From an uncultured Rickettsiales bacterium (lineage in GTDB: Bacteria > Pseudomonadota > Alphaproteobacteria > Rs-D84): a stretch of 64,000 bases of DNA. The stretch's first letter is position 1. Each line of letters starts with the position of its first letter. Positions 1-63,254 of the stretch are shown one piece after another. The notes beneath the pieces were generated by a model. It saw only the letters and a list, made by a program, of their open reading frames with translations. It was not told the DNA's origin and searched no databases. The position numbers and the translations under genes were made by a program. The stretch covers positions 4,570 to 68,569 of the forward strand of contig URSJ01000001.1 in the NCBI GenBank assembly GCA_900550495.1, given 5' to 3'.

Positions 1-1
1 T

Positions 2-2664: not shown

Positions 2665-2666
2665 AT

Positions 2667-9640: not shown

Positions 9641-9652
9641 CGAATAACAAAA

Positions 9653-10256: not shown

Positions 10257-10610
10257 AATATTACAAAAATGTTTTATGTTTCGTTCTTTTTGTGCGGAAT
10301 TTGGTGCACCAAAACAGTTTATTACATCAACACCGTGTATTGTTTTTATACCTGTTTTAGCGATGGGGTGGTTTTGATTGATTTTTTAGGTAAATTATGA
10401 TACAATTTAGTCTGTTAAATTCCATTAAACGGGCGGTGTTTTTACCGGCCGTTTTTATTTTGTCCCACGGGGGTATCCACAAAGATTTACAATTTTTATG
10501 TGGGCCGATGGGTGGGATTTTATAAATTTACCAAATTTTTATGCAATCTGTCGCAACCAAATAATTACTGGGGCGAGGGGGGGTATTTGGTACAGAAAAG
10601 GGTTGGCAAT

Positions 10611-47469: not shown

Positions 47470-47897
47470 ATTCCCCCCCGTGTGTAAAAATAAAACCACC
47501 ATATGAATTCAGGTGGTTGGAGGTTAAGAACTAAGCAAGATGTTAGTGCTGTTTATTCAATATTCACAGCCCTCCAACCATCGGTTGGAGTTTTTTATGT
47601 CCCTGCGGACAATCTTGCCGGGGTTCTTACACCCCACAACGGCAACCCGCCGTTGCAACCGTATTATATAATGTTCGTTGTATGAATACAAGCAAAGAAA
47701 AAAACGCCGCCGGTTTTGCCCGGCGGTGTTTCCGAATGCCCTGAAAGGAAGGAAAGGAGAAAAAGAAATGGGCATTCTAAACTTTCAAATTGGGTTGGGG
47801 CCCAGAGTCCAGAGGAGAGAGAATGTAGGAGGGAGTCTGAATCCCTGAACCCCGTGTCACTGGGGTCGCCCCCTTTGACGAATCGAAATGTAATACA

Positions 47898-47928
47898 ATA
47901 TTTGTTATTTGTCAAGAATATTTGTCAA
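47898..47928 (+). promoter_or_regulatory. direct-repeat operator-like motif (TATTTGTCAA x2-3) upstream of 48087 gene
   Basis: The sequence atatttgttatttgtcaagaatatttgtcaa lies in the divergent intergenic region between two HTH regulators. Confidence 0.3.
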
Positions 47929-48086
47929 AAAAAAATTACGACAATTTTCGTGGGGCTTTTATACCTGAGGGATTTATTGCCTAACTTGTTGAAAATCCTA
48001 GGAAATCGTGCTTGTTGTTCGGTCGCGCATCGTGGAATAAAATCACGGTATAGGAATGACACCTATTATAACCAGAGGAGATAATA

Positions 48087-48332
48087 ATGACACACGAAGA
48101 TGTATGGCGCGCAATTGAACGATTCGCTGACGAGCACGGCATGTCGTGTTCTGGATTGGCAAAATGCAGTGGTTTGGACCCAACCACATTTAACCGCAGC
48201 AAACGCTGGTCGCGCGAAGGTCAGCCCCGCTGGCCGTCAACAAACAGTATTTCCAAAATTTTGTCGTCAACAGGCGCAAATATTGGCGATTTTACCAAGT
48301 TTATTGACCCGCGTAATCCAACTAGGGAATAG
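48087..48332 (+). CDS. HTH protein homologous to N-terminal DNA-binding domain of S24/CI-type repressors (peptidase domain absent), copy 2
   Basis: Contains MSCSGLAKCSGLDPTTFNRSKRWSREGQPRWPSTNSISKIL. It is about 60% identical to 11382-11618. The RBS is agaggag. Confidence 0.55.
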   Translation: MTHEDVWRAIERFADEHGMSCSGLAKCSGLDPTTFNRSKRWSREGQPRWPSTNSISKILSSTGANIGDFTKFIDPRNPTRE

Positions 48333-48422
48333 TCGCGATATTGTGAAGCGCAAAGCCCAGACCGTGCACATGCGCGGTCTTTTTCCCTGGACATAAGGAT
48401 TCCCATCGTTTATCCTGGTTAT

Positions 48423-48842
48423 ATGCTGACTGGAATCAGAATCTATTCTGGCGACGCGGTTTGGCGTTCGGTGCTGGCCGATTTAAATGCGGTGGTGGTG
48501 GATGCGCCTGATATCGCGACAGTCATTTTTGACGAATTAAATATCCCCGCGCATTGCACAATATTGGAATTAAAGGCGGCGATTCTGGCGGCGATGGACA
48601 ATACAAATATTATTCAGTCAATATTTGGACGAAATGTCGCACTGGCCCCATTACAACGGCAAATAATTGTTTTGTTACAGAAAAGTGGTGGTATGACGGG
48701 GGCACAATTGCGCACGGCATTGGGGTATTCGCCACGTGCGACAACACATACTGTTGATACGGCGATATATCAGTTGCGCAAGGTATATGGACACGATTTA
48801 ATCAAAAATATTGATGGGGTGTATACAATTGGTCGGATATAA
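48423..48842 (+). CDS. putative transcriptional regulator with OmpR/PhoB-type winged-helix C-terminal domain
   Basis: The C-terminus LAPLQRQIIVLLQKSGGMTGAQLRTALGYSPRATTHTVDTAIYQLRKVYGHDLIKNIDGVYTIG resembles trans_reg_C. The N-terminus is not a receiver domain. Confidence 0.4.
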   Translation: MLTGIRIYSGDAVWRSVLADLNAVVVDAPDIATVIFDELNIPAHCTILELKAAILAAMDNTNIIQSIFGRNVALAPLQRQIIVLLQKSGGMTGAQLRTALGYSPRATTHTVDTAIYQLRKVYGHDLIKNIDGVYTIGRI

Positions 48843-49497
48843 ACTGATTTCTTTTGATAAAATTCCCAGTACGCAAACATATGCGTTGGATTTGATTTCT
48901 CGTGGTGCGGCACGCGACCGCACAGTTGTTGTCGCGTTGGCCCAATCTGCGGGGCGTGGGCGGTATCGTCGGACATGGGTTTCGCATCATGGCAATTTGT
49001 ATGCCAGTTTTATTTTTGCATCTGAAAATCGCGATTCGCGCTTGTCGTATGTTGTTGCGGTTGCAATCGCTGAAACATTGATTTCATTCGGCATTCGTCC
49101 AACAATAAAGTGGCCAAATGATATTCTGATTGACGGTGCCAAGGTGTGCGGTGTCTTGATTGAATACGCAGGTGCGTTTGTGATTGTCGGCATTGGTATA
49201 AATATAAAATCAAATCCGACAGTGCCCGAATATAAAACAACCAAATTGGAAAATTATGCTAGTGTGGAACGCACAGAACTGTTAAATCGTCTGATGCGTA
49301 ATCTGGACAAATGGATGCGTGCTGATTTTGCTGATGTGCGTGCACGTTGGATGGAATTGGCTGCAGCATTGAACAAGGTGGTACGTTATCGTGGTGAAAA
49401 TGTAGAACTGATTGGAATAAATGAATCTGGCGCATTAGTTTTGCGGCGCGGAACGCAATATTTGTTGGCATATGGTGACGAAATTAGTATGAAATAA
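48811..49497 (+). CDS. birA: biotin--[acetyl-CoA-carboxylase] ligase (group I, no DNA-binding domain)
   Basis: Contains ALAQSAGRGRYRRTWVSHHGNLYAS and KWPNDILIDGAKVCGVLIE. Confidence 0.7.
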   Translation: MMGCIQLVGYKLISFDKIPSTQTYALDLISRGAARDRTVVVALAQSAGRGRYRRTWVSHHGNLYASFIFASENRDSRLSYVVAVAIAETLISFGIRPTIKWPNDILIDGAKVCGVLIEYAGAFVIVGIGINIKSNPTVPEYKTTKLENYASVERTELLNRLMRNLDKWMRADFADVRARWMELAAALNKVVRYRGENVELIGINESGALVLRRGTQYLLAYGDEISMK

Positions 49498-49540: not shown

Positions 49541-49569
49541 TTGACTTTTTATATCATTTGTGATACCAT
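49541..49569 (+). promoter_or_regulatory. sigma70-like promoter candidate (TTGACT-17-TACCAT)
   Basis: -35 TTGACT, 17-bp spacer, -10 TACCAT. It is followed by two intrinsic terminators at 49595-49618 and 49626-49652, before the hydrolase gene. Confidence 0.3.
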
Positions 49570-49594
49570 TCAAAGCATCAACAGTAAAGATTCT

Positions 49595-49652
49595 GTCCGC
49601 GCAATGTGCGGATTTTTTATTTTTTGACCGCGTAAATCACGCGGTCTTTTTT
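49595..49652 (+). terminator. two tandem rho-independent terminators in leader of phage-like operon
   Basis: Hairpin 1: tccgcg-caatg-tgcgga followed by tttttt. Hairpin 2: gaccgcg-taaatca-cgcggtc followed by tttttt. Confidence 0.5.
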
Positions 49653-49691
49653 ATTGCCAAAAAAACAAGATGGAAAGAGGGGAGTTCGCAC

Positions 49692-50102
49692 ATGCAACTT
49701 GAATTGATAACAAACCCAGATGTGTCACAGTGTGCCGCATATAAAATTGCACGCGTGGTTTATGCTGAAACTGGTGCAACTTCATTATCATTGGTCGAGG
49801 CATTTACATCAATGATTTCAAATCTGGCCCGGTGTCGCGGCGTTGACCCAGATGTTGTTATAACAGACCATGATGTGTTTTTATCGCTGGACGAAAATAA
49901 TGCGCGTCACGAATTATTAAATGTTGCACCAGACGTGCGTGCGTTTCAAATGTGTCTGCGTGTAGTGCGGCGGATGCTGCACGGTAATTTGCCCGATGCG
50001 TCATTTGGCGCGACACGTTTCCATCGCGCCGATGAAATGCCCGCATGGTCAACATCGCGCGGATATATCGCCGACATTGATGGCGTATTGTTCTATTTAT
50101 AA
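49692..50102 (+). CDS. cell-wall hydrolase (SleB/Hydrolase_2-like), putative endolysin
   Basis: VVYAETGATSL...ATRFHRADEMPAW resembles the cell-wall hydrolase family. The RBS is aagagggg. Confidence 0.45.
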   Translation: MQLELITNPDVSQCAAYKIARVVYAETGATSLSLVEAFTSMISNLARCRGVDPDVVITDHDVFLSLDENNARHELLNVAPDVRAFQMCLRVVRRMLHGNLPDASFGATRFHRADEMPAWSTSRGYIADIDGVLFYL

Positions 50103-50115
50103 CCAGGTGGTAAAT

Positions 50116-50313
50116 ATGCGCATACAAAAAATTATTCGTGGTGGATGGTTGGCCGACCGACGCACGCACGTTATGTCGGTTGTAGGTGTGCTGTCGGCGG
50201 TGGCGGCGTATTTGGTCGGTGACAGTGATATTTTTGTTTTGTGCCAGGCACTGTTCACATTGGGCGGAATTTATTTTATTCGTAAATCAAACAATCAAAA
50301 CAAAGGAAATTAA
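50116..50313 (+). CDS. small membrane protein, putative holin
   Basis: A 66 aa protein with two hydrophobic segments (VMSVVGVLSAVAAYLV and ALFTLGGIYFI) and a charged C-terminus. It lies directly downstream of the hydrolase. The RBS is aggtgg. Confidence 0.4.
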   Translation: MRIQKIIRGGWLADRRTHVMSVVGVLSAVAAYLVGDSDIFVLCQALFTLGGIYFIRKSNNQNKGN

Positions 50314-50315
50314 AA

Positions 50316-50972
50316 ATGGAAAATATTCCTGAAAAATTTAAAAACCAAGATGGAACATTAAATGCAGACGCATTGATAAAATCATATGTGGCATTAGAAA
50401 AGAAAATCGGAACGATGATATCGGTGCCGTCTGATGATGCTGACGATGATATGCGTAACCGTTTCAGACGCGCAATTGGTGTGCCCGATGCGCCGGATAA
50501 TTATCCAAAAAATGATTTGTTTGATGATGAAAATTTGCGAGCAAAATTTTTTGAAATTGGATTGACGTCATCACAGGTTTCGCAAATTTATAACATCGCC
50601 CAAGAATTTTTATCACCAGTCATATCTGATTTGTTCGCAACACAATCCCAGGCCGCAGCAATTTCTGAATTAAAAAATTTCTTTGGCAGTGATGAAAAAA
50701 TGAACGATGCAATCAAACAAATAAATGCATTTGGAACGCAGTTTTTACCACGTGACGCATTTGATGCGTTGTGCACTACACCCCAGGGAATCCAAGGCAT
50801 ATACAGAATGATGCAATCAATGGAACCACATGTTCAAACCGCCGATAGTGATGATATAAATTTATCCGATAATGATTTGCGACGCATGATGCGCGACCCA
50901 AAATATTGGCGTGATCACGATAGTGAATACGTTCGAAAAATTGAAAATGGATTTAAAAAGTTATATTCATAA
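50316..50972 (+). CDS. putative capsid scaffolding protein (T7 gp9-like position)
   Basis: An acidic, helical 218 aa protein upstream of the capsid gene. The assignment is by position and composition. Confidence 0.4.
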
Positions 50973-51076
50973 TAAAAAAATACACTTTCTTCTTTACTAT
51001 GTTTTATGTTTCGTATAAAATATACAGTAAGAACAAAAAAATTTGTTCTATCCAAAAAAATAGAAAGGAGAGAAGA

Positions 51077-51448
51077 ATGGCATTCACATTCTTGAAGCCA
51101 GCAGCGAAAAAAGTTGCTGCTAAAAAACCGGCTGCGAAACCAGCGGCGAAAAAAGTAGCGGCAAAACCAGCTGCCAAGAAAGTTGCTGCGAAACCAGCGG
51201 CAAAAAAAGTTGCGGTTAAAAAGCCAGCAGCGAAACCAGCAGCCAAGAAAGTTGTTGCGAAAAAAGCACCGGCAAAAAAGCCAGTTGCCAAGAAAGTAGC
51301 GGCAAAACCAGCGGCGAAAAAAGTTGCTGCAAAAAAGCCAGTTGCAAAAAAAGTTGCGGTTAAAAAACCAGCAGCGAAAAAAGTTGTTGCAAAGAAAGCG
51401 CCGGCCAAAAAGCCAGTTGCCAAGAAAACAGCAACCAAGAAAAAATAA
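51077..51448 (+). CDS. Lys/Ala/Pro-repeat histone-H1-like protein ([17 protein letters not shown] repeats)
   Basis: A 123 aa protein almost entirely of KPAAKKVA repeats. RBS aaaggagag; start at ATG 51077. The antisense ORFs here are repeat artefacts. Confidence 0.55.
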
Positions 51449-51451
51449 TAT

Positions 51452-51530
51452 TTTCCCCACCGTCCGGTGGGGTTTTTGTTCGAAGAAAGTATCAGTCGCA
51501 TCATATTAGTGCGACTGAAATTTTTTTTAC
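51452..51530 (+). terminator. two tandem rho-independent terminators between repeat-protein gene and capsid gene
   Basis: ccccaccgtccggtgggg followed by ttttt, and tcagtcgca-tcatattag-tgcgactga followed by aattttttttac. Confidence 0.45.
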
Positions 51531-51667
51531 GGATAATTCTGAATCTGTGTTTGGAACCCGATATGTTTGTTTCGTCGTGGCGCACGTTTGTGCATAACCA
51601 TGTGATGAAATTTTATCGGCGCAATTTATTGCGCCACAACTTACAGAATTTAACCAAAGGAAAAAAT

Positions 51668-52501
51668 ATGTCTGTTTCCATAGACCAAGTATTTGTAAAA
51701 CAATTCGAGGCAGATGTTCATTTAGCATACCAGCAAATGGGCACAAAACTGCGTGGAACCGTTCGCAGCAAATCGGGCGTCGTCGGTGCGTCAACAACTT
51801 TTCAAAAAGTTGGTCGTGGCACCGCCGCAACAAAATCACGTCATGGCATTGTGCCGGTTATGAACCTGAATCATGAGCCGGTTGAATGCGTGTTACAGGA
51901 TTATTATGCAGGTGATTGGGTTGACGCATTAGATGAATTAAAGACGAATGTCGATGAACGTCGTGTCGTGGCCAGTGCCGGCGCATATGCGTTGGGGCGC
52001 AAAACCGACGAACTGATTGTGAACGCCATGTCGGGTGCAACCGCGTCTGTTGGTGATTATTCAGTGGGACTGAGTAAAGATTTGATTTTGTCAGCGGTTG
52101 AAACGCTGAACAGCAAGGATATCCCAGACGATGGTCGTCGCTTTGCCGTTGTTGGTGTGCACCAGTGGAACGAATTGCTGAAAATCACAGAATTTGTTTC
52201 GGCAGATTACGTTGGCAATAATGATTTGCCGTTGATTTCTGGTGGCGCATCTAAAAAGTGGTTGGGTATTACATGGGTGCTGTATAACGCGTTGCCATTA
52301 TCAGATACGACAAAACGCGATTGCTTTATCTATCACGCGGCCAGCATCGGTCACGCATGCGGCCAGGAAGTAAAAACAGATATTTCATGGCATGGTGAAC
52401 GTGCCGCGCACTTTATCAGCAACAGCATGTCCCAGGGCGCGGTCTTGATTGATGGTGACGGTATTGTTCGTATCAAATGCAAAGACAACGACGCACAATA
52501 A
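51668..52501 (+). CDS. phage major capsid protein (T7-like podovirus type)
   Basis: Start at ATG 51668 (MSVSIDQVF...) with an aaaggaaaaaat RBS. The composition and position match the T7 gp10 class. The upstream part of the longer ORF overlaps a terminator. Confidence 0.55.
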   Translation: MSVSIDQVFVKQFEADVHLAYQQMGTKLRGTVRSKSGVVGASTTFQKVGRGTAATKSRHGIVPVMNLNHEPVECVLQDYYAGDWVDALDELKTNVDERRVVASAGAYALGRKTDELIVNAMSGATASVGDYSVGLSKDLILSAVETLNSKDIPDDGRRFAVVGVHQWNELLKITEFVSADYVGNNDLPLISGGASKKWLGITWVLYNALPLSDTTKRDCFIYHAASIGHACGQEVKTDISWHGERAAHFISNSMSQGAVLIDGDGIVRIKCKDNDAQ

Positions 52502-52523
52502 AAAATAACCAAAGGAAAAATAA

Positions 52524-52754
52524 ATGGCTTTTCAGAATAAAAATTTGTCTGTGATTGCATATGCAAACGGGTTTACTCTGTGGCACTATGCAGAAAATGT
52601 TACATTGGCAACAATCACCGCCAGTGGTTATTTTAACGCTGTGAATACACTGATGAATACAGGCGATATTATTATCGTCAATGCGTCAGATAAAACGTCA
52701 ATCAAGGCGATAACCGTTACATCTGGAACTGTCACAACAGCGGCGTTGGGATAA
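52524..52754 (+). CDS. small phage structural protein (hypothetical)
   Basis: A 76 aa protein with an aaaggaaaaa RBS, between the capsid and tail-tube genes. Confidence 0.35.
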   Translation: MAFQNKNLSVIAYANGFTLWHYAENVTLATITASGYFNAVNTLMNTGDIIIVNASDKTSIKAITVTSGTVTTAALG

Positions 52755-52836
52755 AAATAAAATCATAAGTGATTTTTGTTTTGGGGTGGTGTGTACCACC
52801 CCAGGTTTTCTGTATCAACCAATGGGGGAAACGAAA

Positions 52837-53355
52837 ATGTTGACCAAGATAGATTTATGTTCAATGGCATTGCTGAAACTGGGCGAAAAACCGATACAAT
52901 CGTTATTAGATGACGCGCCGGCTGCGCAACTGGCCCGCACATTATTTGATCCGGTGATGGACGCATTGATTGCAGTGCACCCGTGGCGGTTTGCATGTCG
53001 CCGATTTGATTTAATCAAGGATGTCGATGGTGATTTCACCTTGCCGACCGAATGTCTGCGAGTAGTGAGGTCTGTCGGCAATATTGTTGGCAATAAAATC
53101 ATTGCACCGACCGATAGAATTTCTGTAATTGGTTTGGTGCGCGTTACACCGGACGCATTTCCGGGATATTTTGTTTCGGTGGCGGCAACAAAACTGGCGA
53201 TGGAATTTTGCGTCCCGCTGACCGGGGATCAAACGATATTCAGAATGCTGGCCGCGCTGTATGAATCAGAGTTACAGACGGCAAAATTCATTGATGGCAC
53301 AACATCATCGCCATCAAATATTGAAAACTTTTCACTGATAAATTCACGATTTTAA
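52837..53355 (+). CDS. tail tubular protein A (T7 gp11-like)
   Basis: N-terminal SMALLKLGEKPIQSLLDDAPAAQLARTLFDPVMDALIAVHPWRF aligns with T7 gp11 [44 protein letters not shown]. Confidence 0.55.
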   Translation: MLTKIDLCSMALLKLGEKPIQSLLDDAPAAQLARTLFDPVMDALIAVHPWRFACRRFDLIKDVDGDFTLPTECLRVVRSVGNIVGNKIIAPTDRISVIGLVRVTPDAFPGYFVSVAATKLAMEFCVPLTGDQTIFRMLAALYESELQTAKFIDGTTSSPSNIENFSLINSRF

Positions 53356-53373
53356 CGAATTACGGGGGATATA

Positions 53374-55089
53374 ATGGCAAATTTTATAAATACCCAGAAT
53401 TCTTTTGCAGATGGGGAAATTTCTCGCGAATTTTACACGCACGATAATCTGAACGGATTGGCACAATTATTAAATATGGATGTAATGTCGGGCGGCGGAA
53501 TAACGCGCCGTCCAGGATTGTGCGCGGGTGCCGAGTTGCCAAACGTGGCGCGTCTGGTGCCGTTTTCGGTTGGGGCGGATGCGGAATACATGCTGGCCAT
53601 TACCGATGGACATATATTGGTATTTTCGGGCACACAACAAATCCAGGACATCGCCGCGCCGTGGCCGGCAGATGCGATAAAATCACTGCAATACGCCCAG
53701 CGTTTTGGAACTATGATTTTTGTTCATCCAGATTTTCAGCCACGCGTGTTCCAGAGCGCGGCCGATGGATTTTCATTGTCACTGTTTGACTTTTCGCGCA
53801 ATGATTCTGATTTATCGGTCAATATTCCATTTGTGCGATTTGACGATACCGATGGTATTGAAATAACCGTAACAGCAAACAGCGCAGGTAATAACTATGC
53901 TACATTTACGACGAATCACGATTTTTGGACGTCTGATGACATAGGTGGTCGATTTATAGTTCTTGGTCGCCAGTGGACAATTACGTCAGTTACAGGCCCA
54001 ACTGTTGCCACAGCGCATACAAACGGAACATTCACATTGCCCGCCGCCGCCGTTACAGATTGGCGTCAGGCCGCGTTCAGCACGCGTCGTGGTTGGCCGG
54101 TCAGCATAACATTTCACCAGGACCGATTGGTATTCGGTGGCGCACGTGACTATCCGGCGGGCGTGTGGATGTCCCAGGTCGGTCGACACAATAACTTTGA
54201 CGTTGGGACCGGTTTGGATGACCAGGCGATATTTATCACATTACTGTCAGCCCAGCGGCAACAGATTTGCACGGTTGTCAGCGCGGATAACCTGCAAATT
54301 CTGACGACGGTGGGCGAATGGGCAATTGCGAATAAACCACTGACACCGTCATCGGTTGACATAAAGCAACACACGTCGGTCGGCAGTGTGTCGTCACGCT
54401 ATATGCCACCGCAAAAGATAGAGGGCGCAACCGTTTTTGTTGCCGCGTCCAGGCGTGATATTCGTGAACTGGCACTGGATGAACTGGGCGAAAATTATAA
54501 TGCGACCGACTTGTGCGCGTATGCGAAGCATTTAATGCAGTCCCCGGTTGACATTGCGTATAACAGTGCCGAACGGCAATTATTTGTCGTTATGGCGTCA
54601 GGCGATATGGCTGTATTGAATCAGAATACGGCGTTGGGGATTTCTGCGTGGGCCCAGTATAAAACAAACGGCGAATTTAAATCTGTTGCGGTATCGGCGG
54701 ACAAAACGTTCGTTGTTGTCGCGCACGATGGAAAATATTTCCTGGAATATTTTTCGCACGACGCGCTGTGTGATGCGCCGGCGTATAATTTCAGTGTCGT
54801 GGCCGCGGGCGTTCCCCTGCGGGGCAGTGGGCATAACGCCGCGCGTGCGCGTATTCGTAAAATTGCTGCACGGGTCAGTGATACAAAATCAATACTGATA
54901 AATGATATGCGATGTGTGTTGCCAGATGAAATATACGTCGCATCACATTCAGGCTTTACCGGTGATGTGTCAGTTGGTGCATTGGGCTGGATGAATGACT
55001 GTGTCGTGTCGCCATGGCGAATTTCGTCCCAGGATGCGGCAAAAATAACTGTCTTGTCGGTCACAATGTATGGATATTACACAGTTTAA
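53374..55089 (+). CDS. tail tubular protein B (T7 gp12-like nozzle)
   Basis: N-terminal FADGEISREF...GGGITRRPGL resembles T7 gp12 LKGGISQQPD...GLQKRPPL. A 571 aa protein immediately after the gp11-like gene. Confidence 0.5.
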   Translation: MANFINTQNSFADGEISREFYTHDNLNGLAQLLNMDVMSGGGITRRPGLCAGAELPNVARLVPFSVGADAEYMLAITDGHILVFSGTQQIQDIAAPWPADAIKSLQYAQRFGTMIFVHPDFQPRVFQSAADGFSLSLFDFSRNDSDLSVNIPFVRFDDTDGIEITVTANSAGNNYATFTTNHDFWTSDDIGGRFIVLGRQWTITSVTGPTVATAHTNGTFTLPAAAVTDWRQAAFSTRRGWPVSITFHQDRLVFGGARDYPAGVWMSQVGRHNNFDVGTGLDDQAIFITLLSAQRQQICTVVSADNLQILTTVGEWAIANKPLTPSSVDIKQHTSVGSVSSRYMPPQKIEGATVFVAASRRDIRELALDELGENYNATDLCAYAKHLMQSPVDIAYNSAERQLFVVMASGDMAVLNQNTALGISAWAQYKTNGEFKSVAVSADKTFVVVAHDGKYFLEYFSHDALCDAPAYNFSVVAAGVPLRGSGHNAARARIRKIAARVSDTKSILINDMRCVLPDEIYVASHSGFTGDVSVGALGWMNDCVVSPWRISSQDAAKITVLSVTMYGYYTV

Positions 55090-55114
55090 GACAAAATAAC
55101 CAAGGGAGTGAAAA

Positions 55115-55462
55115 ATGGGACAATTGGTTTCCGATATCCAAGAAGTTTTGGACTATAAAAAAAACAAGAGTGAGGCCAGCACCGCTCGCAAGAAAATCTT
55201 GGCAGATATGGCGGCTGACGAAAAAACAAAAACAAATTTGGTAAAAAAAGCCTTGGCAACCCAGCGCGCAAAATACGGTGCGTCGGGGATGTCAAATCGT
55301 GGCATGACCGAAGATGCCGTGTTGCGACGCCTGCAATCTGAAACGGCCGCGCCATATGATGAAAAGCGTCGCGCGTCGTTGGAAAAACTGCGCCGAGTCA
55401 AGGCAACAAAACCAAATTTGTTGAAAAAATTAATGGACCGATTTGACGATTTGGTCGCTTAA
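55115..55462 (+). CDS. small basic virion-associated protein (gp13-like position), hypothetical
   Basis: A 115 aa protein with an aagggag RBS. Confidence 0.35.
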   Translation: MGQLVSDIQEVLDYKKNKSEASTARKKILADMAADEKTKTNLVKKALATQRAKYGASGMSNRGMTEDAVLRRLQSETAAPYDEKRRASLEKLRRVKATKPNLLKKLMDRFDDLVA

Positions 55463-55473
55463 AGGGGGCGAAT

Positions 55474-56028
55474 ATGTATAAAATATCATATGTCGCTGAT
55501 GGCGTTACGACCGAATATCAATTTGTATTCCCGTTTTTTCAAAATGCTGATGTGCATGTCGCAATTGATGGCGTGGCCACAGACGCCGCTGCGGGAGTAT
55601 ATTCGGTTGTGCCAAACGATGATTTTACCGGTGGCAGTGTCGTATTTCAAAACCCTGTGCGCACGGATGCAACGATTGATATATTTCGGCGCGTCGCACT
55701 GAGCCGTGTGATTGATTACCAGCCGACGATGAAAGTTGACCCAGAATCACTGAACGCGGACTTTAATTTTTTATTGGCTGCATTTAGTGACCTGGACGGG
55801 GTGAATGTTGACCTGGCCGAGTGGAAAAATACCCACGATAATGTAATGAATTTTTTGAATTACAACCTGGCGGTGATTCAAGACAAATTATCGGGCGGGG
55901 CGGTATTGGGACTGTATCAAAATCTGCTGTCGGTGCTGGATGGGGCGTTGCCAAAATTGGTCAATGATTATGGGATGATTACTGATGTCGCGCCAAATGA
56001 AAACCGCGATGACTATGGCGTTCTGTGA
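55474..56028 (+). CDS. T7-tail-fibre N-terminal adaptor domain protein (no distal fibre/spike domain)
   Basis: YKISYVADGVTTEYQFVFPFF...VHVAIDGV parallels the T7 gp17 N-terminus TVLTYQLDGSNRDFNIPFEYL...VVVTLIGV. Only 184 aa. Confidence 0.5.
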   Translation: MYKISYVADGVTTEYQFVFPFFQNADVHVAIDGVATDAAAGVYSVVPNDDFTGGSVVFQNPVRTDATIDIFRRVALSRVIDYQPTMKVDPESLNADFNFLLAAFSDLDGVNVDLAEWKNTHDNVMNFLNYNLAVIQDKLSGGAVLGLYQNLLSVLDGALPKLVNDYGMITDVAPNENRDDYGVL

Positions 56029-56614
56029 TTTTATGGACCAATGGAACGCATTGCTGGGGATGAAAACGCCCGCGCACCATCGGCGGATAATGGAATTCTT
56101 GGTGGATACCTGGACCGCGCCACCAAATAGGGGTTTGCTGATGGCATTTCGGCATTCGGGTAAATCCACCGTTGTGGGGATTTTTGCAGCATGCGTGTTA
56201 TGTATGCGACCAGAATCGCGTATTCTGATTTTATCCGCAGAAACCACACTCTCGTCGCGCATGGTTGGACATATTCGTAACATATTAGAAAATCATCCGC
56301 GTTGCGTTGATATGATTCCAACCGGACGGCGAACGTGGGCCAGTGACCGAATAACAGTAAATCGGCCAATTGGCATACGTGAACCGTCGGTCATCTGTGC
56401 TGGTGTTGCCGGTAACATAACGGGCGCACGCGCAGATTTAATAATATGCGATGATGTCGAAGTTCCAAATACCAGCAACACCGCCGACAAACGTGAAAAG
56501 TTACGTGAACGATTACGGGAATTGGATTTTATCTTGTCCCCAGGTGGCACAATGATTTATATCGGAACGCCACATACGGTTGATACGATTTATCGCACCA
56601 GCGATGACGACTAA
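55985..56614 (+). pseudogene. terminase large subunit, N-terminal ATPase fragment (gene split by 3.3 kb insert)
   Basis: Walker A AFRHSGKST and Walker B LIICDDVE. It ends after GTPHTVDTIYRT. The remainder of the gene resumes at 59956. Confidence 0.55.
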
Positions 56615-57330
56615 ATCGATGTCGGCGCGTCGGGCGCATTGTCGGTATCAATTGGATCACGTGTGCTGATAAACGTGCGCAGTTTGCGCAGCAATTCATC
56701 ACCCGCATCACCAAACATCGGCAGATATGTTTCATATTCGGGCATGTCAGCCTGCAATTGCGCCCGTGCACGTTCCGACAGCGGTTCGTTCAGCATATCT
56801 GTTGCGACATGCCACAAGAAATACGCACGATATGTCTTGGTAATGACGGTCCATTTTGATAACAGTTCCGGTTTTTGGGCCAGGGCGGAATGAATTGCAA
56901 CCGGCCATTCATCGCCAAATTTGCGGATAACATTCAATTGCTGAATCTGGTTCAGGCCTTTTTCATCGGGGGTAAATGCAGCTATGCCAGATTCCAGTTC
57001 GCGCCACTCGTCTGCGTTTAGGGGGATTGTCACAATCGTTTCGGCCATTTGACCGCCATATGGTAACAATTCACGGTCAATGGTATCCATTCGTGTTTTG
57101 CCACTGCGCAGGTTTTCAATATGCTGGATTAACATTTTTCCGGTTGGCAAGACGCGCAACTCGCGTATGACTTCGTCATCAGCCTCGGCCACAAAGACGG
57201 GATTTATCGCCGCCCAGCCGCCGATTATGACGTGTTCCTGACGATACAGGTTTAGCAATTTTTGTGCGATTGTGCTGGCTCTGGCTTTCATGGGTTCTCT
57301 CTCTAATTTCTTGGGGTTATTCCATAACAA
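56611..57330 (-). CDS. hypothetical protein
   Basis: A 239 aa ORF overlapping the adjacent repressor gene by 14 nt. Confidence 0.35.
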   Translation of the reverse strand: MLWNNPKKLEREPMKARASTIAQKLLNLYRQEHVIIGGWAAINPVFVAEADDEVIRELRVLPTGKMLIQHIENLRSGKTRMDTIDRELLPYGGQMAETIVTIPLNADEWRELESGIAAFTPDEKGLNQIQQLNVIRKFGDEWPVAIHSALAQKPELLSKWTVITKTYRAYFLWHVATDMLNEPLSERARAQLQADMPEYETYLPMFGDAGDELLRKLRTFISTRDPIDTDNAPDAPTSI

Positions 57331-58324
57331 TCATAATAACCTTGTGCATGGTCTGACCGATTATTTTTTCGTCAGGCGATGAAATCTGGCCGTATATTTT
57401 GCCACGTGAATCTTGGCGCACACTGACAATTTGGGCTGTGGCAACCGTATCAGATGCCAATGCGCTAAAATCAGTGTCGATGCATACGGCCAAGTCACCA
57501 ACGGTGGGTGTCTGTGTTGCATCAGCGAAAACATACGAGTGTTCCGGGATAAAACCACCCATACGTTTCGAATTTGGAATAACAGCGTATATTCCGCTGC
57601 GTCCTTCCAGCGGCATTGGGGCAACAATCATCGTTTCATCGGATTTTTTGAATGCGATTGATTTGCCAGCGGGCGCACCAAATACCGGGACCAATTTTTT
57701 ACGTGCACTGTCATACAATTTTGCGCCATACAGCCCCCCGTGCATATCAATACCAGATGCAGGATTGTCTGGAATCAGAACAGATTTTACACGTTCTTTA
57801 ACCTTGCTGATTTGTTTGTTTAATTCGCCAGATTTATAAAGTGTGGCGATTTTATCGAACAGGCTTTGTGCACTCATTGCGAATGACCGGGCCAGTGGTT
57901 CAATTTCGTTTTGGTAAATTTCACGTTGGCCAACCTCTATCTTGTGATAGACGGATAGCGTCATGCCGGCGTCGTGTGCCGCCTGGGCAATCGTTTTACC
58001 GGTTTGCTGGCGAATCTTGCGCAGGCCCGAACCAAATATTTTCAGACCGCTGTCCTCGTTATCGGTCAGACGACGTTTAATTTCACTCTGCCATTGGTCG
58101 GCAACGGCGTCGTCTTCCTTGATAAATATGTCGGATAATTTGCAACCCAAAATGTTACAGATGTTCAGTAACTGTTTCTGGTTCAGACGGCGAACACCCT
58201 TTTCAATCTTGGATACGGCGGACAGGGACAAGTGCGACTGGCGTGCCAGTTCGGTCATTTTCATCCCCGCGGCCAAGCGGATGTTACGAATATTGTTTGG
58301 AAAAATGATTTCTTCTTGGGCCAT
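57317..58324 (-). CDS. CI/LexA-type repressor: two XRE HTH domains + C-terminal S24-peptidase-like domain
   Basis: HTH1 is MTELARQSHLSLSAVSKIEKG. HTH2 is IAQAAHDAGMTLSVYHKIEVG. The C-terminus VPVFGAPAG...AVIPNSKRMGGFIPEHSYVFAD...VSVRQDSRGKIYGQ parallels the LexA/CI cleavage domain. Confidence 0.55.
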   Translation of the reverse strand: MAQEEIIFPNNIRNIRLAAGMKMTELARQSHLSLSAVSKIEKGVRRLNQKQLLNICNILGCKLSDIFIKEDDAVADQWQSEIKRRLTDNEDSGLKIFGSGLRKIRQQTGKTIAQAAHDAGMTLSVYHKIEVGQREIYQNEIEPLARSFAMSAQSLFDKIATLYKSGELNKQISKVKERVKSVLIPDNPASGIDMHGGLYGAKLYDSARKKLVPVFGAPAGKSIAFKKSDETMIVAPMPLEGRSGIYAVIPNSKRMGGFIPEHSYVFADATQTPTVGDLAVCIDTDFSALASDTVATAQIVSVRQDSRGKIYGQISSPDEKIIGQTMHKVIMIVME

Positions 58325-58397
58325 AGCAAAACTCCTGCACTTGGGTGTTTCTTGACAAAATATTAGTCAATTTTTGCACGCGCCGCAAGTAAAATAA

Positions 58398-59957
58398 TTA
58401 TAATTCCATATCGTCAGGTATTGCCGATGCGTCAATTTGTTCAAATGCATCAACATTATCGGAATCAGATTTTGGCTGAGCCGTCGGCGTTTGGGCAAAA
58501 TCATTTTCGCCACGTGCGTCTATTTCATCCAGATTGTCAAACAGACTGTAATCGCCAAAAAACGCAGTTCGAACCGTTTCTGGACGACCATGACGGTTTT
58601 TACCGATGATGATGTCCGCCTTGCCACGGGCGCGTTCCAGGCGTTTTTGATATGATTCCTGAATCTTGTCGTTTGTGTTGCCTGAAATTCGTTGTGACGG
58701 ATCACGGTTGTCCAGATAGTATTCTTCGCGGTATGTGAACATGACAATGTCTGCGTCCTGTTCAATAGAGCCTGATTCGCGCAAATCCGCCAACTGGGGG
58801 CGTTTATCGTCGCGATTTTCCACACTGCGCGATAACTGGGACAGGGCGATAACTGGGACATCTAATTCCTTGGCCAGCATTTTCAGACCACGAGTGATTT
58901 CAGAAATTTCCTGGACACGGTTGTCATTTTTGCGCCCGCCCGGTGACGTCATCAGTTGCAGATAGTCGATTACAATCAATGCAATCCCGCCGCATTTACG
59001 CGCCAAACGACGGGCACGTGTGCGCATCATTGGCACCGACATGCCGGGCGTGTCATCGATATACAATGGCACGCGACTGATTGCCTGGGAATACTGGGAC
59101 ATTTTTAAAAATTCTTCATCAGAAAATGATCCTTCGCGCATTGCAGATGCAGGAATCTTGGACTGGGACGACAGCACACGCGTCGCCAGCTGTTCCTGGG
59201 ACATTTCCAGACTGAAAAACACGACCGCGCCCTTGTATTGGTCATTGGCGCGCCCCGATAGAATTGCGTTCGCGGCGTTAAATGCAATATTCATTGCCAG
59301 CGTTGTTTTACCCATCGCTGGACGACCCGCGATAATAATCAAATCACTGTGGTGCAGACCGCTGATTGATTTATCCAGTGCGTTCAGCCCCGTGGTCAGA
59401 CCTGATAATTTGCCGTCGGCCTTGTATGCAATCTCGGCCTCTTTCAATGCGCCCTGTAATGCGGTTGCGATTGGCGTAACCTCGCGACGGGTTTCACCCG
59501 CCGACGCCAGGTTGAATAATTTTTGTTCGGCAACCTCTATCTGGGTGGTGACAGGGTTATCCAAATCTTCGACAAATGCGTTGTCGGTAATTGATTGTCC
59601 CAAATCAATCAGTTGGCGCCGCAGGGCGTTTTCATAAACGATACGCGCATATTGTTCAACGTTTACAACCGTTGCGCCAGCACCCGCCAACTGGGTCAGG
59701 TAATCAACGCCACCAACAGATTCCAACGTTCCCTGTTGGTCCAGGTAATTTTTCGCGGTGATAATATCAAACGGAATACCCGCGGCAAATTGGCGTTCGG
59801 CCAATTTATAAATTTCCTGGTGCGCGGGATGCGAAAAATGTTCCGGTTTCAAAAATTCAGAAATGCGTTCTAATGCGCGGTTATTCATCAACACCGCGGC
59901 CAGGACAGCCTGTTCGGCCTCTAAATTAGTTGGCAAAGTTTTGGGAGTAAAGTCCAT
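58398..59957 (-). CDS. dnaB: replicative DNA helicase DnaB
   Basis: N-terminal domain PTNLEAEQAVLAAVLMN, Walker A GRPAMGKTTLAMNIA, and an acidic C-terminal tail. Start at ATG 59957; the longer ORF has an implausible N-terminal extension. Confidence 0.85.
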   Translation of the reverse strand: MDFTPKTLPTNLEAEQAVLAAVLMNNRALERISEFLKPEHFSHPAHQEIYKLAERQFAAGIPFDIITAKNYLDQQGTLESVGGVDYLTQLAGAGATVVNVEQYARIVYENALRRQLIDLGQSITDNAFVEDLDNPVTTQIEVAEQKLFNLASAGETRREVTPIATALQGALKEAEIAYKADGKLSGLTTGLNALDKSISGLHHSDLIIIAGRPAMGKTTLAMNIAFNAANAILSGRANDQYKGAVVFFSLEMSQEQLATRVLSSQSKIPASAMREGSFSDEEFLKMSQYSQAISRVPLYIDDTPGMSVPMMRTRARRLARKCGGIALIVIDYLQLMTSPGGRKNDNRVQEISEITRGLKMLAKELDVPVIALSQLSRSVENRDDKRPQLADLRESGSIEQDADIVMFTYREEYYLDNRDPSQRISGNTNDKIQESYQKRLERARGKADIIIGKNRHGRPETVRTAFFGDYSLFDNLDEIDARGENDFAQTPTAQPKSDSDNVDAFEQIDASAIPDDMEL

Positions 59958-60804
59958 GTCCAATATAGTATCCAAAAAATTTATGTTTTCAACGCCTTTT
60001 TTGCACGGATATAAAACACTGAAAATTCCGGTGGTTGATGATGCCGGCCTGTCCGTCTGGCCCGAATTATTCCCGCCGCATCGCATTGACGAATTGCGGG
60101 CGGCGGTTGGTCCACGACATTTTGCGGCGCAAATGATGTTGGAACCGGTTGCGCCCGAACGTATGCGCCTGGACCCCGGGGCATTACATTTATATGATAA
60201 TGCGTTTGATGCGCACAGTGCCAAAATTGGTGAACATAAAATCACTGGCGCATCGGTATATTGGGATCCATCAACGGGACGACGCGGTCGCGACGGCAGT
60301 GTGTGCGTTATGCTGTATCGTGATGACACAACGCGATGCGTGTTTATTCACGACATTTTATATATGACGGCGTCGGACGATGACGCGCACCCATTGGCGC
60401 ACCAGTGTGATGCGGTGCTGGAATTTATGGCGCGTCACAATATGCGTCGCATAGCGATTGAAACAAATGGAATAGGAAACGCGTTGCCAGAAATAATGCG
60501 TGACGCGGCCAGTCGCGTGGGTGCGCCAATTACAATTATGCGCATTACCAATAACAGGCCAAAGGTTGACCGAATCTTGGACGCAATTGAACCGGCCCTG
60601 GCCGCCGGGCGATTGTATGCGCACCGTGCGTGTTCACAAACACCATTTATTGCCGAAATGTTGGGCTGGTCGCCAATTGGCGGGGCGGGGCATGACGACG
60701 GACTGGACGCGGTGGCGGGCGCAATATGTGCCACGCCAACACCAATCCGCCCCACGGGACACCACGCCCCCACATATTCCGCAAACACGAATTTCAAGGT
60801 TTAA
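59956..60804 (+). pseudogene. terminase large subunit, C-terminal (ATPase lid + nuclease) fragment
   Basis: KIPVVDDAGLSVWPELF...AAQMMLEPV, then nuclease-domain acidic residues (DPSTGRRGRDGSVCVM...HDDGLDAVAGAI). ATG 59956 has a GGGAG RBS and overlaps the dnaB start codon on the opposite strand. Confidence 0.5.
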
Positions 60805-60832
60805 TGCATAACAACAAAACAAAGGAGAAAAT

Positions 60833-62056
60833 ATGCAAAATGATTTAGAAAAAATGTATCGGCGTGCGCTGGACGCGCGTGCGCCGTGGTTAAATCGCTG
60901 GGACGCGGCAATGCGATATACTATGCCGACCGACGACACAGATGCCGCAACACTGTTTGACGCAACCGCGGCAGACGCGGCAGACAACCTGGCGGCGTCA
61001 ATATATTCGCTGATGACGCCACCAGAATCGCTGTGGATATCACTGGTCCCGGAAAGCGACGCGTCCCCCGACGCAGATGCCGCAACCATTGCATTACGCG
61101 CGAACCTGAACGATTCAAATTTCTATACCACAATTCATCAATGCTATCTGGATTTGGTGATTTTGGGAACGGCGTGTCTATTTATGGCAGAAACACCAAT
61201 CGGTGCGTCGTCGGCGTTTTCGTTCACCGCCGTGCCTATGCGTGATATTGCGATTTTGCCGGGTGCAGTATTTCACACAGCGACAATGCCGGCGCACGAA
61301 GTGCTGGAAAAATATCCAACCTGGACGCCACCAGCCGATGTTGCCGACCAAATCAAGCACGACCCGGCAACGCCGTTGCGCCTGGTCCAAAGTTTGGTTG
61401 GCACAGAATTCACCGCGTGGTTGGACGTTGGGGGAAATCTGGAAAACAATATCGTTGCGCGTGGCACATTTGAAACCAACCCATACATCATTTTCCGGTG
61501 GAGTGTTTTAAGCGGTGAACAATATGGTCGTGGGCCGGTCTTGCGCGCATTGCCAGATATTAAAACTGCGAACAAGGTTGTTGAACTGGTGCTGAAAAAC
61601 GCAACGATTGCCGTGTCTGGGATATGGCAGGCCGACGATGATGGCGTCATAAATCTGAACAATATAAACCTGACGCCGGGGGCAATTATCCCCAAGGCCG
61701 TTGGGTCATCAGGGCTGACGCCGCTGTCGTCGGGCGCAGATTTTGATGTGTCGCAAATAATATTAAAAGACCTGCGCGAACGGATTCGCCACGCGTTGTT
61801 GGCCGACCGATTGGGGTTGCTGTCTGAAAAAGAAATGACCGCGACCGAAATCATGGCACGTAATTCTGATATGGTTAGAATTCTGGGGGCGACATACGGG
61901 CGATTGCTGCATGAATTTATTCGGCCATTGACCGACCGGGGATTACAGATTTTATCGCGCCGTGGGGTGATTGCGCCAATCGCGCTGAACAGTGACGCAG
62001 AATTGAAATACATTGCGCCAATCGCACAAATGGCTGTGTCTGAAAACTTGATTTAA
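60833..62056 (+). CDS. portal (head-to-tail connector) protein, T7 gp8-like, short
   Basis: ARAPWLNRW resembles T7 gp8 NDRAPYETR. YGRGPVLRALPDIKTANKVVELVLKNATIAVSGIW resembles gp8 YGRSYIEEYLGDLRSLENLQEAIVKMSMISSKVIGLV. Length 407 aa. Confidence 0.55.
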   Translation: MQNDLEKMYRRALDARAPWLNRWDAAMRYTMPTDDTDAATLFDATAADAADNLAASIYSLMTPPESLWISLVPESDASPDADAATIALRANLNDSNFYTTIHQCYLDLVILGTACLFMAETPIGASSAFSFTAVPMRDIAILPGAVFHTATMPAHEVLEKYPTWTPPADVADQIKHDPATPLRLVQSLVGTEFTAWLDVGGNLENNIVARGTFETNPYIIFRWSVLSGEQYGRGPVLRALPDIKTANKVVELVLKNATIAVSGIWQADDDGVINLNNINLTPGAIIPKAVGSSGLTPLSSGADFDVSQIILKDLRERIRHALLADRLGLLSEKEMTATEIMARNSDMVRILGATYGRLLHEFIRPLTDRGLQILSRRGVIAPIALNSDAELKYIAPIAQMAVSENLI

Positions 62057-62261
62057 CAACGGGGAAAAATATGAACGAAACAGAACAAAATTACGCACGC
62101 GCATTTTCAACCGCCGCCGGTGCGGCAGTATTACAACATCTGCGAAAAATGACTATTGAACGTGTCTTGGGGCCAAATGCGTCGGACGCCGAATTGCGCA
62201 GCCTGGAATCCCAGCGTGCGTTGGTGCATTTGATTGAAAATATGATATCACGGGGGCGAAA

Positions 62262-62522
62262 ATGAAACAGGAAACGAGTGCCTTGGGCGGTATTATCGCG
62301 ACCCTGCGCGACAGTTGGTTTTTAATCGCGTTTATCGGCGGCTTGATTTATTGGGTCGCACGCCAGGATTCGTCATTGGCGGACATTCAACGCGCCGACA
62401 CGCGTATTACCACGCTGGAAAATCGCACTACGATATTGGAAACTGGCATCGGTCAATTACAGATAAAACTGGATACGATTCGCGACGACGTGTCGTTGAT
62501 AAAAACCGCCGTGATAAAATAA
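62262..62522 (+). CDS. membrane-anchored coiled-coil protein (i-spanin/Rz-like)
   Basis: N-terminal TM segment FLIAFIGGLIYWV followed by a heptad-rich helix. A terminator lies at 62521-62550. Confidence 0.35.
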   Translation: MKQETSALGGIIATLRDSWFLIAFIGGLIYWVARQDSSLADIQRADTRITTLENRTTILETGIGQLQIKLDTIRDDVSLIKTAVIK

Positions 62523-62550
62523 AAAACGGGGCAGACGCCCCGTTTTTATA
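62521..62550 (+). terminator. bidirectional rho-independent terminator
   Basis: Hairpin aacggggcagacgccccgtt followed by ttttt. Confidence 0.55.
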
Positions 62551-62763: not shown

Positions 62764-63105
62764 TTATATCGCCGCGCGTGCGTGATGTATGCGCAGACCA
62801 CACACAATTATCACATCAAAACGCGCGTCAAATCCCGGAAATTCCCGTGCCAGAAATGTTTCCGCACTGCGACGCAGGCGTGCCGCCTGGGCGTGCGTAA
62901 TTGCGTCCCAACCGGCGGCGATGGTTGGGCGACGTTTAACCTCTATGAAAACGATGGTTTTGCCGCGGCGGGCAATAATATCAATTTCGGCGCGGCCCGT
63001 GTTGCGCCCGGTAACGTATCGCGATCGCAAAATGCGGTATCCATGTATGCGCAAATACATGCGCGCCCAAAATTCTGCAAATAACCCAGATTCATATGAA
63101 TTCAT
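62764..63105 (-). CDS. UPF0102/YraN-family endonuclease
   Basis: Contains GRAEIDIIARRGKTIVFIEVKRR...RFDVIIV. Start at ATG 63105. Confidence 0.55.
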   Translation of the reverse strand: MNSYESGLFAEFWARMYLRIHGYRILRSRYVTGRNTGRAEIDIIARRGKTIVFIEVKRRPTIAAGWDAITHAQAARLRRSAETFLAREFPGFDARFDVIIVCGLRIHHARAAI

Positions 63106-63254
63106 ACCTGTTATTATAACAATCAAATCCAATAAACGCCAAGAAATAAAAATCATGCGCGGGTGCGGGCGCACATTGCGTTTTTATCCTTGACCGGGGT
63201 GCGTGAATTTTCTTATAATTTGACCAAGAATTGAAAGCAAAGAGGGGAAAAATC

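Follow-up and report, generated by a model that had tools for sequence, protein, structure and literature searches.

A T7-like head-tail-lysis module that encloses dnaB in gut Alphaproteobacteria of the order Rs-D84 is probably a domesticated podovirus remnant with gene transfer agent-like features

When a bacterial genome carries the head, tail and lysis genes of a phage and little else of it, is the phage decaying there or have its particle genes been taken over by the host? The question is raised by a module of ~13 kb in an uncultured Rs-D84 (Rickettsiales) bacterium, which occupies positions 49541-62547 of the window that we studied (the whole stretch of DNA analyzed, 64 kb long). The order Rs-D84 (Candidatus Enterousia and relatives) comprises gut Alphaproteobacteria with genomes of ~0.75-1.0 Mb and a normal coding density (81-94%), from which an accumulation of pseudogenes has been argued against; they are thought to depend on partners and to be under strong genome reduction (PMC12306168). 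The 13-kb locus thus makes up ~1.5% of a host genome of less than 1 Mb. The sequence of the window recurs without differences in a 196-kb MAG scaffold of an ENA metagenome assembly. A sequence-only reading of the window had proposed a domesticated podovirus-type locus, with a decaying T7-like prophage as the alternative. The tests of synteny, selection and missing attachment (att) sites and integrase favor domestication, and we conclude that the element is, very probably, a domesticated and vertically inherited remnant of a podovirus of the T7 supergroup. Going by its sequence, the locus is gene transfer agent (GTA)-like by every genomic criterion tested. Its particle genes are fixed in the chromosome, vertically inherited and under purifying selection, no self-propagation functions or att sites were present among the open reading frames (ORFs) and flanks scanned, and the dnaB gene that it encloses is a host-type equivalog. 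We found no description of this element in the literature.

The scan covered one genome per GTDB species and identified relatives of the module in 249 species genomes. We examined 138 loci, made up of the best 80 of these 249 genomes and 58 loci from IMG/VR, and assigned genes by profile searches (Pfam, PHROG, NCBIfam). In the window, the searches recovered the scaffold, capsid, gp11-like, gp12-like, fiber N-terminal, split large terminase (TerL) and portal proteins named by the sequence-only reading, whose module coordinates also proved exact: the module begins at the −35 hexamer of a conserved promoter (49541) and ends at a bidirectional terminator (62522-62547). The phage genes all lie on the plus strand. 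Head assembly is represented by a T7 gp9-type scaffold (50316-50972; PF05396, 1.7e-10), a major capsid protein of 277 amino acids (aa) (corrected start at 51668, to 52501; PF19821, 9.5e-71), a 76-aa small head-associated protein (52524-52754; phrog_18004, 1.3e-12), also found 3' of the capsid gene in phage relatives, and a 407-aa portal of the T7 gp8 family (60833-62056; PF12236, 3.6e-80). The tail is represented by tubular proteins A (gp11-like, 52837-53355; PF17212, 4e-5; phrog_394, 2.8e-30) and B (gp12-like, 53374-55089; phrog_376, 1.4e-79) and by a truncated fiber of 184 aa (55474-56028), in which a gp17-type N-terminal adaptor (phrog_1640, 8.5e-12, residues 4-98) is followed by ~80 aa. 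The gp8-family portal, gp9 scaffold and gp11 and gp12 tubular proteins are the structural proteins expected of the T7 supergroup, and the PF22530 Terminase-T7 RNaseH-like domain is that of the T7-type large terminase (gp19), here encoded in two ORFs. Identity of the capsid protein is 81-99% among the 80 genome loci and falls to 73% in L136, the most divergent locus; it has the same length in a 34-kb phage.

What makes the module unusual is the gene for its terminase. The N half (TerN, 209 aa, 55985-56614; phrog_38 positions 275-459, 1.3e-44) carries the ATPase and the C half (TerC, 282 aa, 59956-60804; PF22530, PF17289; phrog_38 positions 468-701, 3.5e-35) the RNase-H-like nuclease, both on the plus strand. 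Joined end to end, the halves give one continuous alignment (residues 4-481) with T7-group terminases, at 25-27% identity. They likewise align with a 505-aa relative that is not split (41% identity over 478 aa); the break lies in a variable, non-conserved linker directly after the GTPHxxDTIY motif. The Walker A, Walker B and GTPH motifs of TerN are invariant in 116 distinct sequences, as are the YWDP, ExNG and DDGxDA nuclease motifs of TerC in 130 sequences. Because 119 of the 120 best TerC homologues are stand-alone proteins of 262-288 aa, the split terminase is the norm. Outside the clade, TerN is closest (45-52% identity) to terminases of 450-510 aa that are not split.

Between the two halves lie three minus-strand genes (56611-59957), so that the earlier description of a same-strand set holds for the phage genes only; of the host genes birA and dnaB, which it had placed inside or adjacent to the module, birA adjoins it and dnaB is inside. 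The first of the three encodes a lineage-specific, all-helical protein of 226 aa with no assigned function (56611-57291) and the second a 335-aa regulator (57317-58324) with two XRE-type helix-turn-helix (HTH) domains (PF01381, twice) and a C-terminal beta domain. The third is a host-type replicative helicase DnaB of 519 aa (58398-59957), which scores 613 bits against the NF006606 equivalog model (cutoff 540) and only 413 bits against the phage_DnaB model TIGR03600 (cutoff 499). The best "phage" match to this DnaB, MT835812, was set aside, as it has nothing further in common with the module. The insert fits flush on either side. At one end, the stop codons of TerN (TAA) and of the convergent gene overlap (CTAA, 56611-56614), and at the other end the ATG start codons of dnaB and TerC do so (CATG, 59955-59958). 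The start-codon overlap, conserved in 137 of the 138 loci, places the true start of TerC at 59956 instead of the 59863 or 59983 proposed from the sequence alone. In some lineages an in-frame insertion of 15-18 nt supplies an AAGGA Shine-Dalgarno sequence for dnaB. In the window, a promoter-like site (TTGAAA-N16-TACTAT) lies inside the first TerC codons (59965-59992, minus strand); it stops 8 nt short of the dnaB ATG, a position that suggests a leaderless dnaB mRNA. For the double-HTH regulator, identity is 75-99% over the 80 genome loci, and no full-length match falls below 70%. Its AlphaFold2 model has a predicted local distance difference test (pLDDT) score of 64, and Foldseek matched XRE HTH domains only. 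We rejected an autocleaving S24 repressor, because the serine at the LexA-like position is not conserved.

This architecture is common to all 138 loci, onto which the window proteins were mapped: the gene order and the terminase split are the same throughout. The order runs from the lysis genes (endolysin-like, holin-like) through the scaffold, a histone-H1-like gene, capsid, small head protein, tubular A, tubular B, the gene for a 115-aa protein and, where present, the fiber stub to TerN, and continues after the minus-strand block (226-aa protein, HTH regulator, dnaB) with TerC, portal, Bbp19-like and spanin-like genes. The best 80 genomes are all from uncultured gut Alphaproteobacteria, including Candidatus Enterousia, "uncultured Rickettsiales UMGS" and metagenome-assembled genomes (MAGs) from ruminants, birds and humans, and the lineages in the 138 loci have DnaB proteins 59-100% identical to that of the window. 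In the window the module is flanked by birA on the left (48811-49497) and by yraN on the right (62764-63174, minus strand). The birA gene is upstream in 24 of the 24 loci that extend that far, and on the downstream side different host genes adjoin the module (yraN, a VirB11-like gene with priA, trmA, recG, rng, uppS), which looks like local rearrangement and not mobility. The most divergent locus, L136 (IMGVR_UViG_2820136564_000001), has dnaB and a gene for an uncharacterized 834-aa protein inside its split terminase, a ParA-like gene and a 155-aa ORF between TerC and portal, and a canonical phage lysozyme (PF00959) 3' of the Bbp19-like gene.

The genes are full length in nearly all loci, and their ratios of nonsynonymous to synonymous substitution (dN/dS; pairwise Nei-Gojobori estimates for 150 locus pairs) span 0.05-0.18. 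The lowest values belong to the capsid (0.051), dnaB (0.052), portal (0.059) and double-HTH regulator (0.06), followed by TerN (0.08), holin-like (0.11), TerC (0.12), the 115-aa protein (0.125) and tubular A (0.13), and the highest to tubular B (0.14), endolysin-like (0.17) and scaffold (0.18). The divergence of capsid and portal between loci correlates with that of yraN, the host gene next to the module (r 0.92-0.93), and with that of dnaB (r 0.71-0.77). Codon usage matches that of host genes, with a correlation of relative synonymous codon usage (RSCU) of r 0.94 and a GC content at third codon positions (GC3) of 0.475 vs 0.470. No att-like direct repeats were found flanking the module, nor was there any integrase, replication module, primase or Rep, or single-subunit RNA polymerase (RNAP) among the ORFs scanned in the 64-kb window and 10-kb flanks. 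The other ORFs scanned in the window are those of the host (priA, lpxI, trmA-like, parC/gyrA-like, gap, miaA, nrdD, argS, tRNA genes), and none encodes a large internal virion protein. For the ORFs scanned, the sequence-only reading was right that RNAP, replication, integrase and core genes are lacking. With neither a single-subunit RNAP nor a DNA replication module among the ORFs scanned, the element does not qualify as a member of the Autographiviridae, and it is no functional temperate prophage either: integrase, att sites, replication genes and a full virion set were not found in the ORFs and flanks scanned, and the same compact content recurs in the 138 loci.

These data bear directly on the idea of a decaying or defective T7-like prophage that has not yet been deleted. 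Such an origin would account for the loss of replication, integration, RNAP, core and full fiber genes, for the interruption of the terminase gene and for the three loci with internal deletions (see below). It sits badly, however, with one architecture repeated in 138 loci, with intact ORFs whose dN/dS is as low as that of dnaB, and with terminase catalytic residues that are invariant in both halves, all in hosts under strong genome reduction. The intact genes, the low dN/dS, the tracking of yraN, the constant birA flank, the host-like codon usage and the absence of att sites thus disfavor decay, and we regard it as highly improbable. The earlier alternative of a decaying prophage is contradicted by the shared synteny, the intact ORFs and the dN/dS range alike.

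Is the element then still mobile, as a satellite resembling a phage-inducible chromosomal island (PICI, including capsid-forming ones) or as an active minimal virus that co-speciates with its host and uses dnaB to replicate? It has a capsid, portal and terminase of its own, as capsid-forming PICIs do, its opposite-strand helicase and HTH regulator recall an immunity/replication module, and 58 copies are listed as viral contigs in IMG/VR. Those contigs, however, are provirus cuts with the capsid gene exactly at their start, for which reason we rejected them as free virus, and the locus accounts for the repeated "10-12 kb provirus" flags on these MAGs in IMG/VR. Furthermore, no integrase, att site, primase or Rep was seen among the ORFs scanned, birA invariably forms the left flank, the element occurs across species, DnaB is the chromosomal equivalog and fails the phage_DnaB model, and codon usage is fully host-like. 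PICIs and capsid-forming PICIs are recognized by an integrase with att sites, a Rep/primase-origin module and variable presence among strains; neither integrase nor Rep nor att site was detected, and we consider a mobile satellite or virus very unlikely.

A third explanation concerns the second host-type gene of the module. Between scaffold and capsid, where the sequence-only reading had placed a 149-aa ORF at 50999, there is instead a gene for a histone-H1-like protein of 123 aa with Lys/Ala/Pro repeats (51077-51448, plus strand; PF07382, 2e-13; NF038053, 50 bits, below cutoff). It occurs in every locus, always between scaffold and capsid, with a strong Shine-Dalgarno sequence. The phage relatives have no such gene and a scaffold-capsid gap of only ~35-40 nt; the gene is a host-type insertion. 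It has its own promoter (50993-51049, plus strand; TTTACT, 17-nt spacer, TAAAAT, by consensus scan) and, 3' of it, an invariant palindrome (AGAACAAA-N3-TTTGTTCT, 51030-51049), and promoter and palindrome are near-invariant at the nucleotide level in 24 diverse loci. The AKKP-repeat product could be a host nucleoid protein or a DNA-condensing protein that is packaged. Two host-type genes so placed could have made the locus undeletable, in a form of addiction by nesting: a deletion would be lethal through dnaB or the H1-like gene, and the phage proteins would be retained passively and without function. The flush fit of dnaB in the terminase gene, with overlapping start and stop codons, and the separate promoter of the H1-like gene between scaffold and capsid agree with this. 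Nesting, however, blocks deletions and not point mutations or frameshifts, and the 15 phage genes are, without exception, intact and subject to purifying selection, including the lysis genes and the scaffold, which are equally conserved far from dnaB. Passive retention is, hence, a very improbable explanation in our view.

How could a module interrupted by minus-strand genes be expressed? A sigma-70 promoter with an extended −10 (49541-49569, plus strand; TTGACT, 17-nt spacer, TGnTACCAT, by consensus scan) precedes the first gene and is conserved in the 24 of 24 loci that extend that far upstream. A regular-expression search for TTGAC[AT]-N16-18-TAnnAT matched elsewhere in the window only upstream of two tRNA genes and at a site at 4701. 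Some 30-110 nt after the promoter and still before the first gene, the leader contains two tandem intrinsic terminators (49595-49654, plus strand; stems at 49595-49613 and 49626-49646, each followed by a T-run), and both hairpins are kept in 24 loci with differing stems, that is, through compensatory changes. A further terminator follows the H1-like gene (51455-51472, plus strand) and another the capsid block (52780-52805, plus strand), the latter a hairpin with a T-run that is also kept in 24 loci with unrelated stems and whose position we take to be analogous to that of T-phi in T7. At the end of the module, the bidirectional terminator forms an 11-bp stem between A-runs and T-runs.

The capsid gene has, in addition, a leader of ~110 nt (51490-51601, plus strand) predicted to fold into three helices (HP1-HP3, with HP1 at 51492-51518 followed by a U-run). 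Over 58 sequences, 93.3% of the cells were paired vs 81.0% in shuffled controls (0 of 500 reached the observed value) and 21-41% in controls with slid partners, and double-sided changes were found at 17 of the 23 pairs. No Rfam family matched the leaders in gathering or E-value searches, and the capsid leader is a candidate for a new cis-regulatory RNA. We had also considered it as a promoter; the distance from GGATAAT to the HP1 arm varies by lineage from 12 to 19 nt, and an RNA structure is preferred.

There is no intergenic space ahead of TerC, and the synonymous-site profile over dnaB, the HTH gene and the 226-aa gene revealed no conserved antisense promoter inside the dnaB operon. An internal promoter for terC was rejected as well, since the profile has no marked synonymous dip (lowest windows 0.58-0.62 vs a mean of 0.72). 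Expression would most likely start at the single strong promoter and run straight into the two tandem terminators, and would proceed as one regulated, antiterminated transcript from 49570 to 62522, antisense through the dnaB operon. Processive antitermination is proposed because the polymerase must pass the leader terminators and those before and after the capsid gene. By reaching terC and portal through antisense read-through, the cell would interlock particle production with shut-down of its replicative helicase.

The retained genes are the parts needed to build and release a short-tailed particle filled with DNA, and what appears to have been lost is replication, integration, the phage RNAP, the large core proteins for ejection and, for the most part or entirely, the fiber. 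In a GTA-like mode of action, a subpopulation of cells would assemble capsids, the TerN ATPase and TerC nuclease would assemble in trans and package chromosomal DNA, and the endolysin, holin and spanin would release the particles. The lysis assignments are weaker than the structural ones. The 136-aa endolysin-like protein (49692-50102), encoded in all loci that reach that far, was matched by an endolysin profile (phrog_938, 7e-6), not by the SleB family that the earlier reading had suggested, and Pfam and NCBIfam searches gave no match. The holin and spanin (Rz-like) roles proposed there would follow from hydropathy: the putative holin (65 aa, 50116-50313, kept in 67 loci) has two hydrophobic segments, and the putative spanin (86 aa, 62262-62522) one N-terminal transmembrane segment and a polar tail, with weak PHROG matches. 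That particles form, that host DNA is packaged and transferred, and that transcription proceeds by antitermination and antisense read-through, we infer from the genes and their signals; we think it fairly likely that the whole explanation holds, namely, a domesticated T7-like remnant with a GTA-like function controlled by antitermination and read-through. That the domestication was an ancient and independent event in a T7 podovirus, that the system is essentially universal in the order, that it was the helicase operon that broke the terminase into two halves acting in trans, that read-through acts as a switch for replication arrest and lysis, and that the leader RNA gates capsid expression is, as a combined proposal, improbable.

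Several observations weigh against this explanation. The core/ejection proteins gp14, gp15 and gp16 were not found in the module, where only a 115-aa ORF separates tubular B from the fiber stub; the free phage relative Hodr encodes at that position proteins of 160, 784 and 1248 aa, then one of 350 aa. No small terminase (TerS) was recognized in the module. The fiber stub is missing in ~45% of lineages. The lack of ejection proteins and the patchy fiber leave no obvious route for DNA into a recipient. Neither has an antiterminator been identified, the fold searches of the two nested non-helicase proteins being uninformative. Three of ~105 loci (L008, L036 and L059) have internal deletions from tubular A/B (from the capsid in L059) up to TerN, with the remaining genes intact; these could be either rare real losses or errors of MAG assembly. 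All of the data derive, in fact, from MAGs, and particles and packaged DNA are predictions from the genes. Among the three loci with deletions, L008 is binned as Bacteroides fragilis.

The 115-aa protein (55115-55462, plus strand) is basic, helical and conserved, with representatives in 115 loci and no family match in Pfam, PHROG, NCBIfam or PADLOC searches. Its candidacy as a TerS or gp14 equivalent was rejected, as it has no similarity to the ORFs at the same position in a related module of Siccirubricoccus. The fiber stub was detected in 70 loci vs 126 with TerN, and there is no room for it where it is missing. A separate gene for a 170-aa fiber-like protein (phrog_9648, phrog_1396) is found at or near the module end in L072 (13389-13901) and 16 other loci, all from stub-bearing lineages; the window has none.

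Another explanation would be a particle or capsid system exapted for a role other than gene transfer, such as the release of DNA or nutrients by programmed lysis of some of the cells, a DNA-containing decoy or anti-phage device, or delivery to other species or to the host epithelium. The loss of the ejection proteins and, often, of the fiber argues against classical injection, the hosts probably depend on partners, and the lysis genes are conserved. Yet the strong conservation of the terminase, portal and tubular proteins implies DNA packaging and a closed tail, and PADLOC returned generic HTH matches only and no defense signature. Nor is injection machinery strictly needed for transfer, as the entry of RcGTA DNA depends on competence proteins of the recipient. 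We regard a non-transfer role as possible but not probable, and continue with the GTA-like function as the preferred explanation.

How does the locus compare with known systems? Recognized GTA families are few and, to our knowledge, the characterized alphaproteobacterial ones (the RcGTA/CcGTA type and BaGTA) are not T7-type. Clusters of the RcGTA/CcGTA type (Rhodogtaviriformidae) resemble the locus as chromosomal head-tail(-lysis) clusters of ~14 kb, vertically inherited, under purifying selection and devoid of replication and integration genes. They, too, are kept in highly reduced alphaproteobacterial genomes (PMC9254644), and CcGTA is controlled by terminators and antitermination (PMC11150451). 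The RcGTA type is, however, siphovirus-like, with an HK97-type head and a long tail, whereas the locus has a T7-type portal, scaffold, tubular A/B and TerL, a split terminase, a nested dnaB and no recognizable TerS. Because all matched families are podovirus-type, with no tape measure, protease or tail tube families among them, the locus is not an RcGTA-type cluster. BaGTA of Bartonella is likewise domesticated and conserved throughout a host-associated alphaproteobacterial lineage, and its capsid operon is controlled by a processive antiterminator that acts on a long leader (bioRxiv 10.1101/2024.11.20.624540). BaGTA is linked to replication through a run-off replication module, whereas the link in the locus would be the host dnaB gene itself and not a phage origin of replication. 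We set the two apart by gene lengths only, not by sequence: BaGTA has an unsplit TerL of 447 aa, a portal of 620 aa and a capsid-sized gene of 372 aa (PMC3610622), where the locus has 209+282, 407 and 277 aa.

The earlier statement that known GTAs all derive from sipho- or myoviruses is dated. FpGTA, a GTA-like element of the gut bacterium Faecalibacterium (Firmicutes), has a reported podovirus-like morphology, a 10.5-kb operon with a separate 5.5-kb operon, and packaging shown experimentally (PMC12946183). A podovirus-derived GTA is, therefore, not unprecedented as a morphology. FpGTA belongs to another phylum, and we liken the locus, known from its genes, to it by description only.

Among free phages, the closest by capsid (44% identity) is Pelagibacter phage EXVC031P Hodr, which shares the portal, Bbp19-like, scaffold, small head and tubular B genes in the same local order. 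The Bbp19-like small phage protein of the window (62071-62265, plus strand; PF25181, 1.8e-11) lies near the portal gene in this pelagiphage as well. Hodr differs from the locus in its size (34 kb, with ~20 kb of other genes), its scaffold-capsid gap of ~40 nt and the absence of a nested host gene. Closer in capsid sequence (55-58% identity) are five IMG/VR proviruses of ~13.7 kb (L145-L149; L146 is from Siccirubricoccus phaeus, Acetobacteraceae), sister modules that have portal, scaffold, capsid, tubular A/B, fiber, TerL and lysin genes and no room for large core proteins. Unlike the locus, they have a portal-first canonical order, a single 483-aa TerL, a full fiber of 773 aa and no dnaB. Since they are also compact, T7-like modules of this kind may be more widely spread in Alphaproteobacteria; the terminase split and the nesting of dnaB are, on the loci compared, specific to the Rs-D84 lineage. 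In regulation, the nearest parallel is the lambdoid late operon, in which a constitutive promoter (PR') is followed by a terminator (tR') that the Q antiterminator overcomes. The resemblance is one of layout only, a strong promoter and then, within ~50-110 nt, efficient terminators before lysis and morphogenesis genes, and no Q-like protein was identified at the locus.

Three other features of the window were noted. Just 5' of birA (47125-48842) are three small ORFs of DNA-binding type: a 125-aa XRE HTH protein (minus strand), an 81-aa HTH-like protein (48087-48332) and a 139-aa winged-helix-like protein (48423-48842). The 125-aa and 139-aa ORFs had tblastn matches at the same place in those few loci that are long enough to include it, and the trio is a possible source of regulators of the module. 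Pieces resembling type IV secretion systems occur near the module (41540-42499 and 24040-25122, both minus strand; L001, 12603-13295), comprising a VirB11-like ATPase, a protein with a C-terminal lytic transglycosylase domain and a weak VirB8 match 3' of yraN. Finally, a low-GC stretch at window positions 1-11000 (33-37% GC; GC3 0.33 vs 0.47 elsewhere) encodes a cytidylyltransferase, an Hsp70-like ATPase and argS and is perhaps an island or a region of distinct composition.

If the GTA-like explanation is true, a T7-type element in at least 249 species would mean that phage domestication arose independently once more, in hosts that are common uncultured members of the human and livestock gut microbiota. 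An apparently functional terminase in two pieces and an essential host gene nested flush within it, with overlapping start codons, are unusual in themselves. Because 13 kb are kept in genomes of less than 1 Mb under selection as strong as that on dnaB, the locus implies a substantial benefit to the cell. It would, thus, bear on the purpose of GTAs, for example, in DNA repair or recombination in small, clonal, partner-dependent populations.

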